A stretch of 64,000 nt of DNA from an uncultured Chromatiales bacterium (GCA_964347615.1 CAYFZO010000005.1:34282-98281); one strand, 5' to 3'. Shown: positions 12,609-25,397, numbered from the stretch's first letter. The notes: generated by a model from the sequence alone, not told the origin. A program made the numbers and translations.

Positions 12609-13712
12609 ATGAACGACGATCCTGACAACCCGGTGATGCGTCGCTGCTTGCAGAAAGTGGCGACGGGGCCGGAATACAGCAAAGACCTGAGCTTCGAGGA
12701 AGCCCGCGAAGGCGGCAAGCAAATCTTTTCAGGCGCCGCCGGCGCGGTGCAGACTGCGGTGTTCTTGATCGCGTTGAGAATGAAGCGCGAAACCGACGAC
12801 GAAAACGCCGGCCTCCTGCAAGCGTTGCTCGACTGCATGCAGCCCGTCGTCGCACCGGTCGAGACGCTGGTGGACGTCGGCGAACCCTACAACGGCTACA
12901 CGCGATGCCTGCCGACGTCGGCGTTCCTGCCGGCGATGCTCGCGGCCTGCGACGTGCCTGCGGTCATCCACGGCTTGGAGGAAGTCGGCCCCAAGTACGG
13001 CGCAACCCCCCACAAGATACTGCGCGCGGCGGGCAAGACGACCGATTTGGACGGCGAAGCGGCGGCGGCGCAGCTCGGCACGGCAGGCTGGGCTTACGTT
13101 GACCAAAGCCGCTATTGTCCGGCACTGCACGCGTTGGTCGGGTTGCGAAACCTGATGGTCAAGCGCTCGGTGCTGAACACGATCGAGGTGCTCACCGGCC
13201 CGATTCGGGCGCAACGCAGCACCCACTTGCTGACCGGCTACGTGCACAAGGCCTACCCGCCGGCATACACGCGGCTCGCAAAACAATCCGGGTTTGCGTC
13301 GGCGCTGATCGTGCGCGGCGTCGAAGGCGGCGTCTCGGCGTCGCTCCGCCAACCCGCCGAGACGTTCGAATATCACGACGACGACGAGCGGTCGTGCAAA
13401 ATCAACCCGGCGGACGCCGGCGTTGAACGGACAATCAAGTGCGTGCCGCTGCCCGAATCACTTCCCGCGGTCAAAGCAAGCGACAACGTCGCGGCGAAAA
13501 CGGACTCCGACGCATTGGCTGAAGCGGCGGCGCAGACCGGCCTCGGCGCGCTGCGCGGCGAAACGGGCGCGGCACGCGACAGCCTGATTTACACCGCCGC
13601 CGCCGTGCTCACCCACCTCAAACGCTGCGCTTCGGTTGCCGAAGCCGCCGCCACGGCGCGGCAAGCGCTCGACGCCGGCGAGGCGCTCGCACGTTTCACC
13701 GCAGGCAAGTGA
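12609..13712 (+). CDS. TrpD2/YbiB-family protein (anthranilate phosphoribosyltransferase-like fold).
   Basis: FLIALRMKRETDDE...VDVGEPYNGYTRCLPTSAFLPAMLAACDVPAVIHGLEE...ALIVRGVEGG is collinear with E. coli YbiB (IALRIKGEGEAE...IPSYNGARK...VVVHGVSE). The canonical TrpD GTGGDG motif is missing, as is typical of TrpD2. Confidence 0.6.
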   Translation: MNDDPDNPVMRRCLQKVATGPEYSKDLSFEEAREGGKQIFSGAAGAVQTAVFLIALRMKRETDDENAGLLQALLDCMQPVVAPVETLVDVGEPYNGYTRCLPTSAFLPAMLAACDVPAVIHGLEEVGPKYGATPHKILRAAGKTTDLDGEAAAAQLGTAGWAYVDQSRYCPALHALVGLRNLMVKRSVLNTIEVLTGPIRAQRSTHLLTGYVHKAYPPAYTRLAKQSGFASALIVRGVEGGVSASLRQPAETFEYHDDDERSCKINPADAGVERTIKCVPLPESLPAVKASDNVAAKTDSDALAEAAAQTGLGALRGETGAARDSLIYTAAAVLTHLKRCASVAEAAATARQALDAGEALARFTAGK

Positions 13713-13945
13713 CACACGCTGTGTTGCTCGGGAAACAAGCGACTCCGAACGGATGCTTGCGGTGGCTTGCCGGAACGCCGGTCTCCCGTCGTCGAGCCGG
13801 CTTCGGCGGATTCCCCGATTACCCCGCCGTAATTATTTGATACCGATTGTTCTTGTGGCAGAATGACACCCGGATCGCCGCCCGCCCGGTTCGACCCAAG
13901 CTTCGCTTGCGCACCACTTAACAGTTAAACAAGAGGACCGTCAAC

Positions 13946-14140
13946 GTGGACAAATTTTATCGCGAGACAATCACCAAGATGGAAAGTGCGTCGGTTGACC
14001 CCGAATACGTGCTCGGCTGGCAGGGCGGGTATTTGAGCCATCCCAAACGCGAAGAACAACGAGCCAACGAAGCCTACGACGCGGGATACGAGGACGGACA
14101 AAACAAGAACGCCGATAACTTTGAGAAGTGGAAGAAATGA
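13946..14140 (+). CDS. Small hypothetical protein (64 aa).
   Basis: A GTG start sits 8 nt after AAGAGGA. The sequence is MDKFYRETITKMESASVDPEYVLGWQGGYLSHPKREEQRANEAYDAGYEDGQNKNADNFEKWKK. No family recognised. Confidence 0.4.
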   Translation: MDKFYRETITKMESASVDPEYVLGWQGGYLSHPKREEQRANEAYDAGYEDGQNKNADNFEKWKK

Positions 14141-14199
14141 CGGGCGCAACCCGACGCCTGTCTCCCCGACGCCCCGCCGCGGGCGCGCGTGAATAAGGC

Positions 14200-14745
14200 C
14201 TACAACAGCGAACGCGCGACGCGTTTGATTCCTTTGTAGATTTCCGGCGCCTCGGCGTCGAGCACGTAGTCCGGAATCCACCTGTTGTCCTTGTCTCCCA
14301 GCACCTGCTGAACGTGCTGGCCCAGGATGCGACGCATAGTGAAACTCGGTCCTTCGTCGGCGTCGAAGCTGCAATCGGAGTATTCATCGCCGCGACGGTT
14401 GACCAAGTCCACGAAGCCGCCCCTCGAAACGCTCTCGCCGACGTCGGCCCGGTTGTCGCGCATGATTTCAGCGACCCGCGCGGCGACCGCGCCGATCAAT
14501 CGCCGCCGGCGTTCCTCGTCGAGACGCACGTGCGCCAAGCGGTCGATCAAATGCAGCGAATACGCAAGCAACTCGGCAATCGCGTCGAGGCGCTGGGCGT
14601 TGGTTCGGGTCTCGAATCCTTCGTTCTCAAGGTTGAGCAGACTTTGTGAGGCGAGCTTCCATACGCTCATCGCCAGCGCACTCCCGGTTTCGCCGCATTC
14701 GCGCGCGCGGTCTTTCCGGTTCCATTTGGTCTTAAGTCGCACCAT
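14200..14745 (-). CDS. Hypothetical cytoplasmic protein (181 aa).
   Basis: This ORF is intact. Its first 82 codons are reiterated at 16577-16849 by the tandem duplication, so the duplication boundary (14502) falls inside this gene. Confidence 0.5.
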   Translation of the reverse strand: MVRLKTKWNRKDRARECGETGSALAMSVWKLASQSLLNLENEGFETRTNAQRLDAIAELLAYSLHLIDRLAHVRLDEERRRRLIGAVAARVAEIMRDNRADVGESVSRGGFVDLVNRRGDEYSDCSFDADEGPSFTMRRILGQHVQQVLGDKDNRWIPDYVLDAEAPEIYKGIKRVARSLL

Positions 14746-14784
14746 GCTCGTTTCTCCATGCCGACGTCTTATCTTGTCTGCAAT

Positions 14785-16236
14785 TTACCCGGTGAATGTC
14801 CGCGGGAACGACGCCGTTCCATGACGACCAGAATCAGGCTGGTCCAACATAGGGCGTGCAACGTAAACACGTATTTTCCCGTGGAAAATATGTTGTCGGA
14901 CTGCAAAAACAGCTGCGCCCAGATAAAGACCAGCATCCCGATTAATGAACGTCACGTCGCGGAAAAGCTTGACCCGCCCCCTGCGCGCCTGAACCGCGGC
15001 AAACCACGTGGACCCGACGAGCGCAAGCGCCGAGAGACCCGTGAATACCTTGCCCGCCGTAAAGTGCGCGTCCAGTCCCGCAGTATAAAAAGCATGGAGG
15101 TTCCTGACCCTGAGAAGTTCGTATATGAAACCCCTCACCGACTCCCAGTCCAGCGCACCCACCAAGTTTCCAAGTTCACGGTGATAGTTCCGCCCTGCCC
15201 TTCCCGTCATCCCTTTCGACAAAACCTCGGTCACCCACCCGCTTTCATAAGTGATTGTCCCGTCATAAAACCGCGACCACAGAACCGGGTCGCTGATCAA
15301 CCATTCATAAACGACGATTTTGGCCAATTGCCCGAGCATGAAGCAGGCCACAAAACCGACTATATAAAGCCCGACACACGCGACCGCCGACTTGATTTCC
15401 CCAGACGTGAAATAAATGAACGACCCGATCAGGGTCATTATAAGAATCGTATGACCGTCAAGCGTCCACACGTAAGACGACACCATCCCGGCGATAAAGC
15501 AAAAGAGGCGCAAGGATCCGGATGAAGCACGACTCCCGGCCAATAAAACCAAAACGACCGCCGACGCAACGGCCCACAAATGCCCCAGACCATCCGCCGA
15601 ACCGGGAAAATACCGGATGCCCGAAAAGAAAAAGCCGAAAACAATCAACGGAGAAAAAAGCAGAAACGTTCTCGGGTAAAACCGCAACAGAAAAACCGCC
15701 AGCAACAAATAAGCGAAATAAGTGACGGTTTTCGTCATTTCCCTGATCTCAAAAACCGAGAAATAACGCAACGCGACGGCGTGTAACGCCTTGCCTCCCC
15801 ACCAGTACCGGGTCTTCTCCAACCGGTCCCCAAACTCGGCGCCATCCACTGCAACCGAGGCCAACGCCGCACAATAAGCGCCGGGTGCTCTGTCGAAGCT
15901 CTTCAACAGCACGGCGTCAAGAAACGGAGTGGCGACGTCCGTTCTCGTGTAACCCCCTCTCAGTATCATCAGCGACGTCTGGCACTGTGCAAATCTACGT
16001 GTACCCCCTAAAAGCGTTATCGGATACGGCGTCTCGGAATACATAACCCACAAACTCGGGGAGTGCGTCCGCCCAAGATTGTTTTCCTTGAAAGCCGTCT
16101 CAAACCTTTGCTTCCCCAGCTCGTAAGGCAGTTGGTTACCGAGATAGTGCAGGAAAAAGAAAAGCACCGTGCCTGAAACGGCAACGGCGGCATACGTGAA
16201 AAACGATTTCAAGGAAAGTCCGGGAAGGCTGTGCAT
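14785..16236 (-). CDS. Polytopic integral membrane protein, duplicated copy 1 (483 aa from MHSLPG; an in-frame upstream ATG at 16380 would give 531 aa).
   Basis: There are multiple hydrophobic helices (YFAYLLLAVFLLRF, LLFSPLIVFGFFFSG, LWAVASAVVLVLLAG, ILIMTLIGSFIYF, VACVGLYIVGFVACFML) plus soluble N- and C-terminal regions. The apparent plus-strand ORFs over the same DNA are low-complexity antisense artefacts. Confidence 0.6.
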   Translation of the reverse strand: MHSLPGLSLKSFFTYAAVAVSGTVLFFFLHYLGNQLPYELGKQRFETAFKENNLGRTHSPSLWVMYSETPYPITLLGGTRRFAQCQTSLMILRGGYTRTDVATPFLDAVLLKSFDRAPGAYCAALASVAVDGAEFGDRLEKTRYWWGGKALHAVALRYFSVFEIREMTKTVTYFAYLLLAVFLLRFYPRTFLLFSPLIVFGFFFSGIRYFPGSADGLGHLWAVASAVVLVLLAGSRASSGSLRLFCFIAGMVSSYVWTLDGHTILIMTLIGSFIYFTSGEIKSAVACVGLYIVGFVACFMLGQLAKIVVYEWLISDPVLWSRFYDGTITYESGWVTEVLSKGMTGRAGRNYHRELGNLVGALDWESVRGFIYELLRVRNLHAFYTAGLDAHFTAGKVFTGLSALALVGSTWFAAVQARRGRVKLFRDVTFINRDAGLYLGAAVFAVRQHIFHGKIRVYVARPMLDQPDSGRHGTASFPRTFTG

Positions 16237-16333
16237 GACCGACGTTTCACACCTCTCCTGAAAAGGCACTCCAAAGACGCTCCAGAACCACGGGCTGCCG
16301 AAAAACGAAACGACAAAACGGAAAACCGAATGG

Positions 16334-16503
16334 GCGTCGGAATCCGCCGCTTTCCTGAAAAAGAACCGCCCGCCCGACAACGGCAGAGCGACCAGTGTCA
16401 GATAAGAATAATCTGCATGAGCGTCGGAATCCGCTGCTTTCCTGGAAAAGAACCGCCCGCCCGCCGACGGCAGAGCGACCAGTGTCAGATAAGAATAATC
16501 TGC
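16334..16503. repeat. Local tandem direct repeat, 2 x 83 bp with a 4-bp spacer, present in copy 1 only.
   Basis: GCGTCGGAATCCGC(C/T)GCTTTCCTG(A/G)AAAAGAACCGCCCGCCCG(A/C)C(A/G)ACGGCAGAGCGACCAGTGTCAGATAAGAATAATCTGC occurs twice. Copy 2 retains only part of one unit. Confidence 0.8.
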
Positions 16504-16576
16504 GGGTTTTCATTGTTCAATCGCGAAGCCGTAATGAACTCAAAGGATGAAATCGCCGGGGCGGCGAAAGCCCACT

Positions 16577-16849
16577 CTACCACGGGAGGCGCCGCCGACT
16601 TGCTTGCCGCCGGCGTTCCTCGTCGAGACGTACGTGCGCCAAGCGGTCGATCAAATGCAGCGAATACGCAAGCAACTCGGCAATCGCGTCGAGGCGCTGG
16701 GCGTTGGTTCGGGTCTCGAATCCTTCGTTCTCAAGGTTGAGCAGACTTTGTGAGGCGAGCTTCCATACGCTCATCGCCAGCGCACTCCCGGTTTCGCCGC
16801 ATTCGCGCGCGCGGTCTTTCCGGTTCCATTTGGTCTTAAGTCGCACCAT
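16577..16849 (-). pseudogene. Truncated duplicate (the first 82 codons) of the 14200-14745 gene, created by the duplication junction.
   Basis: The 90-aa ORF is identical to the N-terminus of the 181-aa protein through ...LDEERRR. It then reads junction-derived QASRRRLPW before a stop. Confidence 0.55.
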
Positions 16850-16888
16850 GCTCGTTTCTCCATGCCGACGTCTTATCTTGTCTGCAAT

Positions 16889-18340
16889 TTACCCGGTGAA
16901 TGTCCGCGGGAACGACGCCGTTCCATGACGACCAGAATCAGGCTGGTCCAACATAGGGCGTGCAACGTAAACACGTATTTTCCCGTGGAAAATATGTTGT
17001 CGGACTGCAAAAACAGCTGCGCCCAGATAAAGACCAGCATCCCGATTAATGAACGTCACGTCGCGGAAAAGCTTGACCCGCCCCCTGCGCGCCTGAACCG
17101 CGGCAAACCACGTGGACCCGACGAGCGCAAGCGCCGAGAGACCCGTGAATACCTTGCCCGCCGTAAAGTGCGCGTCCAGTCCCGCAGTATAAAAAGCATG
17201 GAGGTTCCTGACCCTGAGAAGTTCGTATATGAAACCCCTCACCGACTCCCAGTCCAGCGCACCCACCAAGTTTCCAAGTTCACGGTGATAGTTCCGCCCT
17301 GCCCTTCCCGTCATCCCTTTCGACAAAACCTCGGTCACCCACCCGCTTTCATAAGTGATTGTCCCGTCATAAAACCGCGACCACAGAACCGGGTCGCTGA
17401 TCAACCATTCATAAACGACGATTTTGGCCAATTGCCCGAGCATGAAGCAGGCCACAAAACCGACTATATAAAGCCCGACACACGCGACCGCCGACTTGAT
17501 TTCCCCAGACGTGAAATAAATGAACGACCCGATCAGGGTCATTATAAGAATCGTATGACCGTCAAGCGTCCACACGTAAGACGACACCATCCCGGCGATA
17601 AAGCAAAAGAGGCGCAAGGATCCGGATGAAGCACGACTCCCGGCCAATAAAACCAAAACGACCGCCGACGCAACGGCCCACAAATGCCCCAGACCATCCG
17701 CCGAACCGGGAAAATACCGGATGCCCGAAAAGAAAAAGCCGAAAACAATCAACGGAGAAAAAAGCAGAAACGTTCTCGGGTAAAACCGCAACAGAAAAAC
17801 CGCCAGCAACAAATAAGCGAAATAAGTGACGGTTTTCGTCATTTCCCTGATCTCAAAAACCGAGAAATAACGCAACGCGACGGCGTGTAACGCCTTGCCT
17901 CCCCACCAGTACCGGGTCTTCTCCAACCGGTCCCCAAACTCGGCGCCATCCACTGCAACCGAGGCCAACGCCGCACAATAAGCGCCGGGTGCTCTGTCGA
18001 AGCTCTTCAACAGCACGGCGTCAAGAAACGGAGTGGCGACGTCCGTTCTCGTGTAACCCCCTCTCAGTATCATCAGCGACGTCTGGCACTGTGCAAATCT
18101 ACGTGTACCCCCTAAAAGCGTTATCGGATACGGCGTCTCGGAATACATAACCCACAAACTCGGGGAGTGCGTCCGCCCAAGATTGTTTTCCTTGAAAGCC
18201 GTCTCAAACCTTTGCTTCCCCAGCTCGTAAGGCAGTTGGTTACCGAGATAGTGCAGGAAAAAGAAAAGCACCGTGCCTGAAACGGCAACGGCGGCATACG
18301 TGAAAAACGATTTCAAGGAAAATCCGGGAAGGCTGTGCAT
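16889..18340 (-). CDS. Polytopic integral membrane protein, duplicated copy 2 (483 aa).
   Basis: Over 99% identical to copy 1 at the protein level, with a single L7F difference in the compared region. Confidence 0.6.
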   Translation of the reverse strand: MHSLPGFSLKSFFTYAAVAVSGTVLFFFLHYLGNQLPYELGKQRFETAFKENNLGRTHSPSLWVMYSETPYPITLLGGTRRFAQCQTSLMILRGGYTRTDVATPFLDAVLLKSFDRAPGAYCAALASVAVDGAEFGDRLEKTRYWWGGKALHAVALRYFSVFEIREMTKTVTYFAYLLLAVFLLRFYPRTFLLFSPLIVFGFFFSGIRYFPGSADGLGHLWAVASAVVLVLLAGSRASSGSLRLFCFIAGMVSSYVWTLDGHTILIMTLIGSFIYFTSGEIKSAVACVGLYIVGFVACFMLGQLAKIVVYEWLISDPVLWSRFYDGTITYESGWVTEVLSKGMTGRAGRNYHRELGNLVGALDWESVRGFIYELLRVRNLHAFYTAGLDAHFTAGKVFTGLSALALVGSTWFAAVQARRGRVKLFRDVTFINRDAGLYLGAAVFAVRQHIFHGKIRVYVARPMLDQPDSGRHGTASFPRTFTG

Positions 18341-18581
18341 GGCCGACGTTTCACACCTCTCCTGAAAAGGACCGACCGCCCGACAACGGCAGAGCGACCA
18401 GCGTCGGATAAGAATAATCTGCGGGTTTTCATCGTTCGATAGCGAAGCCGAATGAGCTCAAAGGATGAAATCGCCGGGGCGGCGAAAGCCCACTCTACCA
18501 CGGGAGGCGCCGCCGACTTGCTTGCCGCCGGGGCGGCGACGCTCGACCGCCCGCCGGAGCAACGCGAGGTTTCGACCTATA

Positions 18582-19007
18582 ATGAACACTCGGAAACACC
18601 GCACGGCACTCGTGATGAACGACGAAATGAACATGCTTCCCGAAACGAACGACTGCTCGGCGCACGAACCGTTCGCGCTGCGCGTGCTCGGCGACAGCAT
18701 GGAACCCGAATTCCCGGACGGTGCAATCATCATCATCGACCCTTCGGGCGTGGTCGAGAACGGCTCCTACGTCCTCGCCGAAATCAGCGACGCCGACGCC
18801 GAAACGGACGGCACGAACGGTCTCAAAACCGAGGCCGGCTACATCTTCCGCCGCTTGGTGGTCGAGGAGGCACGTTACTATCTGAAACCGCTGAACCCCG
18901 GTTACGCAACGATAGAGATTATCGGGCGCGAGGCGATAAAAGGCGTGGTCGTGCAAAAGGCCGGGACGCGAAAGCGCGACAGAAGACACTACACGGCGCC
19001 GGTCTAG
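18582..19007 (+). CDS. Peptidase S24 (LexA/UmuD-like C-terminal domain) protein with no DNA-binding domain.
   Basis: ALRVLGDSMEPEFPDGAIIIIDP...GSYVLAEI...YIFRRL...IEIIGREAIKGVVVQKAG has the GDSM serine nucleophile motif and a downstream Lys. The ATG at 18582 follows TATAAT immediately. The upstream part of track ORF 18465 is junk from the duplication end. Confidence 0.65.
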   Translation: MNTRKHRTALVMNDEMNMLPETNDCSAHEPFALRVLGDSMEPEFPDGAIIIIDPSGVVENGSYVLAEISDADAETDGTNGLKTEAGYIFRRLVVEEARYYLKPLNPGYATIEIIGREAIKGVVVQKAGTRKRDRRHYTAPV

Positions 19008-19076
19008 AAACAGCCGACGCTATCCGCACCGAAGATTCGTCACACGCGCGGCGGGCAAGCCCCCCGCGTCTTTTAT

Positions 19077-19730
19077 TCAATGCCCGCCTCGGGCGGCGCT
19101 CATCCTTTCGCGCTCGACCGCAAGCACCGCCGCTTCGACGCGCGAGCGCGCACCAAGCTTCTTGAGGATAGACTTCACGTGCAGCTTGACGGTGCCGTCC
19201 GAAATGCCGAGGCCGTTGGCAATCATCTTGTTGCTTTGCCCTTCGGCCAGGAAGTGCAGGATTTCACGCTCTCTCGGCGTCAACTTCTCAAGCAGATCGG
19301 GTTCGTCAAAGGCCCGGCTGGCGCGCGCATAAGCCTCTTTCATCTCAGGGGCAACAACCTTGTTGCCGGCAATCACTTCGCGCAACGCGGTGACCAGCTC
19401 GTCGGGCGCCATGTCTTTCAGGAAGTAGCCGCGGGCGCCGCCTTTCATCGCGTCGGCAAGGTCTTTCTCGCTTCTGCTGGTGGTCAGGATGATGACCGGC
19501 ACCGAAACGTCGCTTTCCATCAGCCGCCCAAGCACGCTGATTCCGTCCAGACCGGGCATCCTGACGTCGAGCAGCACCGCGTGCGGCTGAAGCTGACGCA
19601 CGAGCTCGACGCCTTTCTCTCCGTCGCCGAGCGAGGCGACGACTTCGATGTTGCGCAACGTGAGCAGGCTTTCCAGCCCCTCACGGAAAAGCGTGTGGTC
19701 GTCAATCACGACAACTTTGAGATTATCCAT
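19077..19730 (-). CDS. NarL/LuxR-family response regulator.
   Basis: A REC domain (VVVIDDHTLFREG...LLDVRMPGLDG) is followed by a LuxR HTH (LTPREREILHFLAEGQSNKMIANGLGISDGTVKLHVKSILKKLG). Confidence 0.9.
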   Translation of the reverse strand: MDNLKVVVIDDHTLFREGLESLLTLRNIEVVASLGDGEKGVELVRQLQPHAVLLDVRMPGLDGISVLGRLMESDVSVPVIILTTSRSEKDLADAMKGGARGYFLKDMAPDELVTALREVIAGNKVVAPEMKEAYARASRAFDEPDLLEKLTPREREILHFLAEGQSNKMIANGLGISDGTVKLHVKSILKKLGARSRVEAAVLAVERERMSAARGGH

Positions 19731-25320: not shown

Positions 25321-25397
25321 GGGCGCGTAGCTCAGCCGGTCAGAGCACCGTCTTCACATGGCGGGGGTCGCTGGTTCGAATCCAGCCGCGCCCACCA
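25321..25397 (+). tRNA. tRNA-Val (anticodon CAC), with encoded CCA.
   Basis: It was hand-folded. The acceptor stem is GGGCGCG/CGCGCCC and the D-arm is GCTC-AGCCGGTCA-GAGC. The anticodon stem is CCGTC/GGCGG with loop TTCACAT (U33, anticodon CAC, A37). The T-arm is GCTGG-TTCGAAT-CCAGC, followed by discriminator A and CCA. Confidence 0.85.

Follow-up and report, generated by a model that had tools for sequence, protein, structure and literature searches.

The 64,000-nucleotide stretch of an uncultured Chromatiales bacterium analysed here (CAYFZO010000005.1:34282-98281 of GCA_964347615.1; "the window" hereafter) carries a head-to-tail direct repeat that encloses the gene of an uncharacterised polytopic membrane protein. 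The locus is read, with a probability of about 0.8, as an older, polymorphic tandem duplication of an accessory envelope gene whose copies were homogenised by gene conversion and both carry a frameshift. The duplication is an established polymorphism within the population, neither private to the window genome nor an assembly artefact. It is real and shared because the same junction is seen in independent assemblies. It is carried by three sampled strains (four assemblies), and one-copy and two-copy haplotypes coexist in one metagenome sample.

The repeat is composed of two units, and the genes within it (the 181-residue gene, the two membrane-protein genes and a 90-residue fragment) all lie on the minus strand. 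Unit B (14502–16613, minus strand, 2112 bp), named copy 1 in a preliminary description made from the sequence alone, contains a relic of an ArnE-like gene and copy B of the membrane-protein gene, and its distal end is formed by the first 82 codons of the intact 181-residue gene. Unit A (16606–18531, minus strand, 1926 bp), the former copy 2, borders the original upstream flank on the side of the S24 peptidase gene. The two units overlap in the octamer GCCGCCGG at 16606–16613, with which unit B ends and unit A begins, and which represents the novel junction. The parental octamers are found at 14502–14509 and 18524–18531. Similarity stops exactly at GCCGCCGG on both outer sides, the sequence beyond the octamer being unrelated. 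The preliminary description had recognised this tandem duplication with its novel junction in an 8-bp microhomology starting at 14502, 16606 and 18524. It had also correctly placed the left boundary inside the 181-residue gene (14200–14745), with a truncated copy at 16577–16849 (minus strand). This 90-residue product of the junction combines 82 original codons with 8 new ones.

Copy B of the membrane-protein gene (14785–16236, minus strand) is an open reading frame (ORF) of 483 residues, a frameshifted form of a 488-residue protein with about ten predicted transmembrane (TM) helices. Copy A (16889–18340, minus strand) has the same length and the same frameshift, and differs from copy B only in that F7 replaces L7, as described before. 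The offset of +2104 that had been taken as constant over a 2.1-kb unit holds for 14502–16266, where 3 mismatches (14527, 16218 and 16238) are found in 1765 bp. Colinearity at this offset ends at 16266, and the lengths of the units, 2112 and 1926 bp, do not agree with a single repeat size. Beyond this position unit B has about 185 bp that are missing from unit A (about 16267–16451, minus strand), and the remaining 162 bp to the junction align at an offset of +1918/1919 with ~93% identity (10–11 substitutions and one 1-bp indel). The near-identity of the copies is thus correct for the first 1765 bp, but not for the portion next to the junction. The three plus-strand ORF pairs that had been listed do recur, but they are antisense shadows of the minus-strand membrane-protein gene and not genes. 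A sigma-70 promoter scan of 14100–19100 gave no site, and the scan was uninformative.

The nearest database protein to the window product is P0001, 99% identical over residues 1–431, whose cluster at 90% identity has 8 members on 5 contigs. The 483-residue window product is itself present in the protein collection, where an exact look-up gave no recorded gene position. Contig L001 (540 kb) carries two 1925-bp units with the same 8-bp overlap and 13 differences, without the extra 185 bp. In L037, a 675-kb contig from the same sample, two units again share the 8-bp junction overlap. The extra 185-bp segment lies in the distal unit B, as in the window, and units A and B differ at 59 of 1764 sites (3.3%). 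Both contigs have names that resemble long-read assembler output and may be of that kind. L038, a SPAdes contig from a different assembly, starts ~70 bp upstream of the junction, and its right flank is identical to the window (0 differences over 7601 positions). The single-copy state, for which related strains had been proposed as the place to look, exists within the same species (L036, a 1.15-Mb contig from the sample of L001 and L037, with one unit) and in a related species, L003, whose single copy has the same synteny and encodes a protein with 61% identity. Every haplotype examined has one or two copies and none has more. No further haplotype was found in Joint Genome Institute (JGI) metagenomes either by the junction 25-mer or by a search for P0001 relatives.

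These contigs bear directly on whether the repeat could be an artefact, either a false expansion of a single-copy locus or a consensus blend of two diverged copies; assembly collapse or expansion had been named in the preliminary description as the other possibility. Repeats of ~2 kb are error-prone in short-read assembly, and the SPAdes contig breaks close to the junction. An artefact is nevertheless very improbable: three other assemblies show the same structure, the 540-kb and 675-kb contigs among them with two copies and the junction, and the distinct upstream regions of the window units match the A and B types found elsewhere, which a false expansion would not give.

The allele patterns were read from alignments of the two window and two L001 units and then of eight units across all strains. 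There are 16 sites at which the two window copies share a state found in neither L001 copy; a grouping of positional orthologues is favoured by no site. The window copies differ from each other at 3 sites and from the L001 copies at 19–25. At six A/B-diagnostic columns (476, 669, 704, 724, 736 and 2036) unit A of L001 equals unit A of L037 and unit B of L001 equals unit B of L037, while the two groups differ. These copy-specific alleles are shared by L001 and L037 and therefore existed before the strains separated. Unit A of the window has the B allele at all six diagnostic columns, and A-type alleles at columns 76–396 and 2087. This pattern indicates the footprint of a B-to-A gene conversion of at least 1.58 kb (minimal tract 16682–18257, maximal tract 16632–18321, minus strand), and the near-identity of the window copies is best explained by this tract and not by recency.

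The near-identity had been taken before as a sign of a very recent event or of ongoing amplification selected for gene dosage, the copies being alike for want of time. The 3 differences in 1765 bp and a microhomology junction, typical of new duplications, would fit such an event. The chance that it is the right explanation is nonetheless slight, as the same junction is present in L001 and L037 (with L038 beginning just upstream of it), the L037 copies are 3.3% apart, copy-specific alleles are common to several strains, and no haplotype goes beyond two copies. Within the window itself, the 162 bp upstream are only 93% identical, a 185-bp length difference separates the units, and both copies are frameshifted.

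Agreement of paralogues within genomes and difference between genomes at 16 sites, together with the coexistence of one- and two-copy haplotypes, could also arise if the locus had been duplicated independently and recurrently at the same octamers, or had repeatedly collapsed and re-duplicated, without any conversion. This course of events is quite unlikely. It needs the identical 8-bp join every time, and it does not account for the six diagnostic sites common to L001 and L037 or for the B-specific relic present in the window, L037 and L038. Moreover, A-type alleles flank the B-type core of window unit A, and therefore independent re-duplication cannot explain this unit: a fresh duplication from a single template cannot give such a pattern. 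Conversion between copies probably acted in L001 too, in the opposite sense. Upstream, the alleles of its unit B are of A type and the 185-bp segment is gone, from which we infer that a reverse, A-to-B tract overwrote this region and removed the relic.

The 185-bp segment found in unit B is ancestral and not an insertion, because it is homologous to an ArnE-like gene of L003. There, an intact gene of 123 codons sits between the S24 gene and the membrane-protein gene. Its product matches the ArnE (5.5e-12), ArnF and EamA models, all under the curated cut-offs. The window segment aligns to the 5' third of this gene. The part that is still recognisable, at 16279–16416 (minus strand), corresponds to residues 5–51 with 57% identity (tblastn, E 5e-11), whereas unit A keeps only residues 3–23. 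As judged from these alignments, the segment is a pseudogene relic, and there is a deletion at this place in the A-type and single-copy haplotypes. The region also contains two tandem 87-bp units (16323–16409 and 16410–16496, minus strand) that are 91–94% identical and represent the start of the relic, duplicated internally; a single diverged homologue of the 87-bp unit is found in unit A at 18329–18415. A riboswitch or structured leader RNA was considered for the 87-bp units and rejected, as there was no Rfam match (at the gathering threshold or at E<=5) and the fold z-scores ranged from -0.35 to +0.85. A mobile element as source of the 185 bp was likewise discarded, BLAST giving only local and orthologous matches.

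Several observations weigh against the proposed history. The sample comprises just five haplotypes, in which recombination between strains and conversion between copies have produced mosaics, so that any age assigned to the duplication is uncertain. Flanking DNA differs by 0.25–0.94% among strains, and flank relatedness is itself mosaic, L036 being closest to L037 on the right flank and most distant on the left. In L037 about 25 alleles are private to unit A, and the synonymous divergence (pS) between the L037 copies is 0.058, above the pS to the single-copy strain (0.028–0.041). Part of the 3.3% divergence in L037 may thus have been imported as foreign alleles by recombination. The upstream alleles of L036 are partly of A type and partly of B type, and this haplotype may be either ancestrally single-copy or a revertant in which two copies collapsed. 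The direction and the mechanism of homogenisation are deduced from allele patterns. The private alleles and the pS values of L037, with the mosaic flanks of L036, would be expected if the duplication were only slightly older than the strain split, and if both the A/B divergence of L037 and the upstream region of window unit B came from foreign recombination. Such a history is a possibility to be kept in mind, although an unlikely one: the homology to the L003 gene makes the upstream B-type segment ancestral and not newly acquired, and the six A/B sites are common across strains. It would alter the dating only, for the duplication would still predate the sampled strains and conversion would still act.

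Note that in the single-copy haplotype L036 the upstream site has 7 of the 8 octamer bases. At the left unit end of this contig (9810–9840), 7 substitutions are found within the first 30 bp, one of which reduces the octamer to 7/8. The cluster may have come in as a short patch from elsewhere, or the region may have mutated in the duplicated clade.

The reading preferred here, an older duplication homogenised by conversion, also accounts for the state of the membrane-protein gene in the window strain. Both copies carry a +1 frameshift caused by an extra A (14943–14944 in copy B and 17047–17048 in copy A, both on the minus strand), which in gene sense gives CATTAATCGG where all intact alleles have CATTATCGG. 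In copy A this position is within the conversion tract, and the frameshift is therefore a single mutation now present in both copies. The extra A is found also in the independent short-read contig L038, while all alleles other than those of the window and L038 encode 488 residues. The frameshift replaces residues 432–488, the conserved carboxyl-terminal 57 residues, which in the AF2 (AlphaFold2) model of the protein correspond to TM10 and half of TM9. The intact carboxyl terminus (…FIIGMLVFIWAQLFLQSDN…ALCWTSLILVVMERRR) is kept in distant homologues, and P0002, P0003, P0006 and P0011 retain the terminus of L001 type. The locus is probably inactive or decaying in the window strain, to judge from this lesion. 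Gene-dosage adaptation, which the preliminary description had offered as the benefit of the duplication, is doubtful there because both copies lack the conserved terminus.

Intact versions of the gene in other strains have pairwise ratios of non-synonymous to synonymous polymorphism (pN/pS) of 0.16–0.97, which suggests that in relatives the gene is intact and under purifying selection. Amino-acid variation among strains is concentrated at residues 336–393, a loop modelled with low confidence. Positive selection as the driver of allele diversity was considered and is unsupported at the level of the whole gene, pN/pS being never clearly above 1.

The following sequence of events is proposed. An accessory cassette consisting of the ArnE-like gene and the 488-codon membrane-protein gene would have been inserted between the divergent S24 and 181-residue genes, as the organisation in relatives suggests, and the small ArnE-like gene would then have decayed to a relic. 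The junction itself is observed; the process that made it was presumably a single illegitimate recombination joining two GCCGCCGG octamers ~1.9–2.1 kb apart, one inside the 181-residue gene and one which, in the single-unit (A/S-type) state, precedes the start of the membrane-protein gene by 191 bp. Its product would be the head-to-tail duplication of the relic, the membrane-protein gene and the first 82 codons of the 181-residue gene. Each copy retains ~190 bp of native upstream sequence and may keep its own candidate promoter. The copies would since have been homogenised repeatedly, probably through the homology between them, by gene conversion or unequal exchange. In the window strain, the B-to-A tract of at least 1.58 kb would have erased the differences in the coding region and left each copy with the +1 frameshift.

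Microhomology-mediated (RecA-independent) tandem duplications and amplifications are known from join points in Salmonella and E. coli. The window locus resembles them in its head-to-tail units, the join within an 8-bp identity, the truncation of a neighbouring gene and the coexistence of a single-copy allele. Classical duplications are, however, unstable, transient and found mostly under laboratory selection, whereas this one is present in multiple strains with copy-specific alleles and structural differences. It also departs from classical amplifications in that the copy number does not exceed two and both window copies are disabled. Concerted evolution by gene conversion is known for tufA/tufB and for ribosomal RNA operons. 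The features in common with these are paralogues that are identical at sites where genomes differ, mosaic tracts with boundaries, and a mutation spread to both copies. The differences are that here the copies are adjacent, the duplication is still polymorphic, and conversion would have run in opposite directions in the window and in L001.

The membrane protein belongs to a family without match in the main collections of models. Pfam matched none of 54 homologues, and for the protein itself there was no NCBIfam match, no PDB sequence match at E<=10 and no PHROG match. Among 1.84 billion representative proteins, 2475 were matched by a profile search at E<=0.001; many of these matches cover only a ~110-residue carboxyl-terminal repeat domain that the window protein lacks. 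Longer homologues (P0010, P0024 and P0163–P0298; 600–860 residues and more) carry 1–3 copies of this domain, which features the motifs FFLH…P, GFDNLDF and TGQ and has no Pfam model; it occurs up to 11 times in other proteins without the membrane core. The AF2 model of the membrane protein is confident (predicted local distance difference test, pLDDT, 84; predicted template-modelling score, pTM, 0.87). In it, TM1 is followed by a loop of ~125 residues and then by six more TM helices, which a second loop, of ~75 residues, separates from the last three. Near-invariant residues follow TM1 (H30, G33, N34, P37, Y38 and R44), the topology being taken from the model only. The closest genome match of the protein is a Chromatiales metagenome-assembled genome (MAG) of Ca. 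Oxydemutatoraceae.

A role is suggested by the company that the gene keeps. A scan of genome contigs found the family at 32 loci in genomes labelled as MAGs, belonging to Gammaproteobacteria, Nitrospirales, Dehalococcoidia, Acidobacteriota, Binatia, Spirochaetia and others. The carriers L004–L035 are all uncultured MAGs of many phyla, nearly all with isolate names in the style of universally unique identifiers (UUIDs). Seven loci of the family are found in a single gammaproteobacterial MAG (OZ242023.1). The mix of phyla resembles that of sponge-associated communities, which is our impression from the taxonomy and without sample metadata. A conserved GT2 glycosyltransferase of ~400 residues is encoded immediately upstream on the same strand at 7 loci (L002, L004, L007, L011, L015, L019 and L030), and a shorter related GT2 is found upstream of the family gene in L013; several phyla are represented among these loci. 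The two GT2 examples that were scanned have their best NCBIfam similarities to AglJ, PpgS, dolichyl-phosphate hexose transferase and ArnC. In L002, L003, L007 and L028 the gene next to the family gene on its upstream side is ArnE-like. Other recurrent neighbours code for FemAB-like acetyltransferases, DUF2304 proteins, a deacetylase, and carbamoyl- and sulfotransferases.

The order GT2, ArnE-like protein and polytopic protein(s) found in relatives is that of gtrA-gtrB-gtrC (yfdG-yfdH-yfdI in E. coli K-12) and of arnC/arnE-arnF/arnT. The 488-residue family occupies the slot of GtrC or ArnT and, like gtrC genes, it is sequence-diverse and accessory. On this gene context, the chances that the 488-residue protein is an envelope glycan transferase are about even. 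It would likely face the periplasm and serve as the transferase in a pathway of three components, in which an envelope glycan is modified with a polyprenyl-phosphate-linked sugar.

The transferase role has to be weighed against a series of negative results, several of which set the family apart from the gtr and arn systems. No relation to YfdI or ArnT is detectable: alignment of the family profile by hhalign gave a probability of 0.13% for E. coli K-12 YfdI and of 0.15% for E. coli ArnT. Sequence searches of Pfam, NCBIfam and the PDB gave no membership in a family of the glycosyltransferase C (GT-C) fold (ArnT, PglB/STT3, PMT, ALG). Foldseek comparison of the AF2 model with the PDB returned nothing at E<=0.001, and that with BFVD nothing significant; the best GT-C matches, STT3 (8b6l_I, probability 0.51, template-modelling score 0.27) and ALG3 (9s6r_A, score 0.22), are non-significant. 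For the conserved acidic catalytic residue that GT-C enzymes have in the first external loop after TM1, no invariant D or E is seen there among the family members, as far as the modelled topology can be relied on. Finally, the 64 kb of the window hold no partner GT2 gene, and its flippase gene is a relic.

At eight loci the family gene is present in tandem arrays of 2–5 full-length copies (L002, L007, L008, L009, L010, L012, L016, which has fragments in addition, and L030). Within-genome paralogues are 58–93% identical in the six arrays that were measured (L002, L007, L008, L009, L016 and L030), while each array locus is only 30–45% identical to the protein of the window species, which makes it look as if each array had expanded in situ independently. 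Variable positions make up 44% and 33% of the sites in two predicted loops against 21% in the TM2–7 core, which suggests that tandem copies would supply variants differing mainly in exposed loops. Such an expansion seems to be at its youngest stage at the window locus. Note that in L002 a Y-family polymerase gene (IMS, DinB/UmuC-like; 13529–14608, minus strand) lies directly downstream of an array of three paralogues; the parallel with the UmuD-like S24 neighbour of the window may be a coincidence.

The repeat is flanked by the intact 181-residue gene (14200–14745, minus strand), a conserved hypothetical of gammaproteobacterial MAGs in which the left breakpoint of the duplication falls after codon 82, and by a divergent S24 peptidase-domain gene (~18609–19007, plus strand) that lies outside the repeat in the original upstream flank. 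In three related genomes (L039, L040 and L041) the S24 gene directly faces the 181-residue gene. The membrane-protein gene is an accessory insertion because it is absent between the two in these genomes. It has 52–55% G+C against 60–66% in the flanks. The region 14785–18340 shows strong negative GC skew, and the flanking housekeeping genes are those of the isc cluster and of the pyruvate dehydrogenase complex. Low G+C content and GC skew are consistent with horizontal acquisition. Searches for a defence-system or phage origin were negative for the membrane and 181-residue proteins in PADLOC, PHROGs and BFVD, and this origin was set aside; PADLOC also gave no match for the 90-residue fragment and the S24 protein.

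The S24 protein consists of this domain only (~130 residues, similar to the carboxyl terminus of UmuD and repressors) and forms a conserved divergent pair with the 181-residue protein. In several gammaproteobacterial MAGs the pair adjoins a NarL-type two-component system and a sulfur-globule gene of the Alvin_2107 family. A UmuC-like partner is not nearby in the window. A 64-residue ORF at 13946–14140 (plus strand) of the window encodes a product matching the model of the Alvin_2107 family globule sulfur oxidation protein (NCBIfam equivalog, 7.6e-29, above cut-off), a match that points to a sulfur-oxidising gammaproteobacterium. The sole Rfam match above the gathering threshold in the 64 kb is a tRNA gene at 25321–25394 (plus strand). 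A literature search under "Oxydemutatoraceae" and "Alvin_2107" returned nothing on this locus.

Taken as a structural variant, a duplication at a microhomology that later underwent gene conversion, the locus is nothing out of the ordinary, but it is unusually well documented. One natural population holds a one-copy state, a diverged two-copy state and two differently homogenised two-copy states, and in the window strain conversion would have disabled the two copies together by spreading a frameshift. The case also carries a caution, namely that near-identical tandem copies in one genome do not imply a recent event. The more novel element is the family, which combines the lack of a Pfam model, a confident predicted fold without solved relative and a gene-order tie to the synthesis and flipping of polyprenyl-phosphate sugars. 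It may be proposed, tentatively and with the odds rather against it, that the 488-residue protein founds a new class of polytopic envelope glycan transferases, without structural match, working with an ArnC/GtrB-like synthase and an ArnE-like flippase. The family would repeatedly expand in situ as tandem arrays, in several phyla known only from uncultured MAGs, and so diversify exposed loops and surface glycans. The window would then represent the earliest stage, at which the duplication is still polymorphic and gene conversion, in alternation with divergence, homogenises the copies or silences them together. If such a class of glycan transferases does exist, studies of structure and of envelope glycans would have a target in this family.

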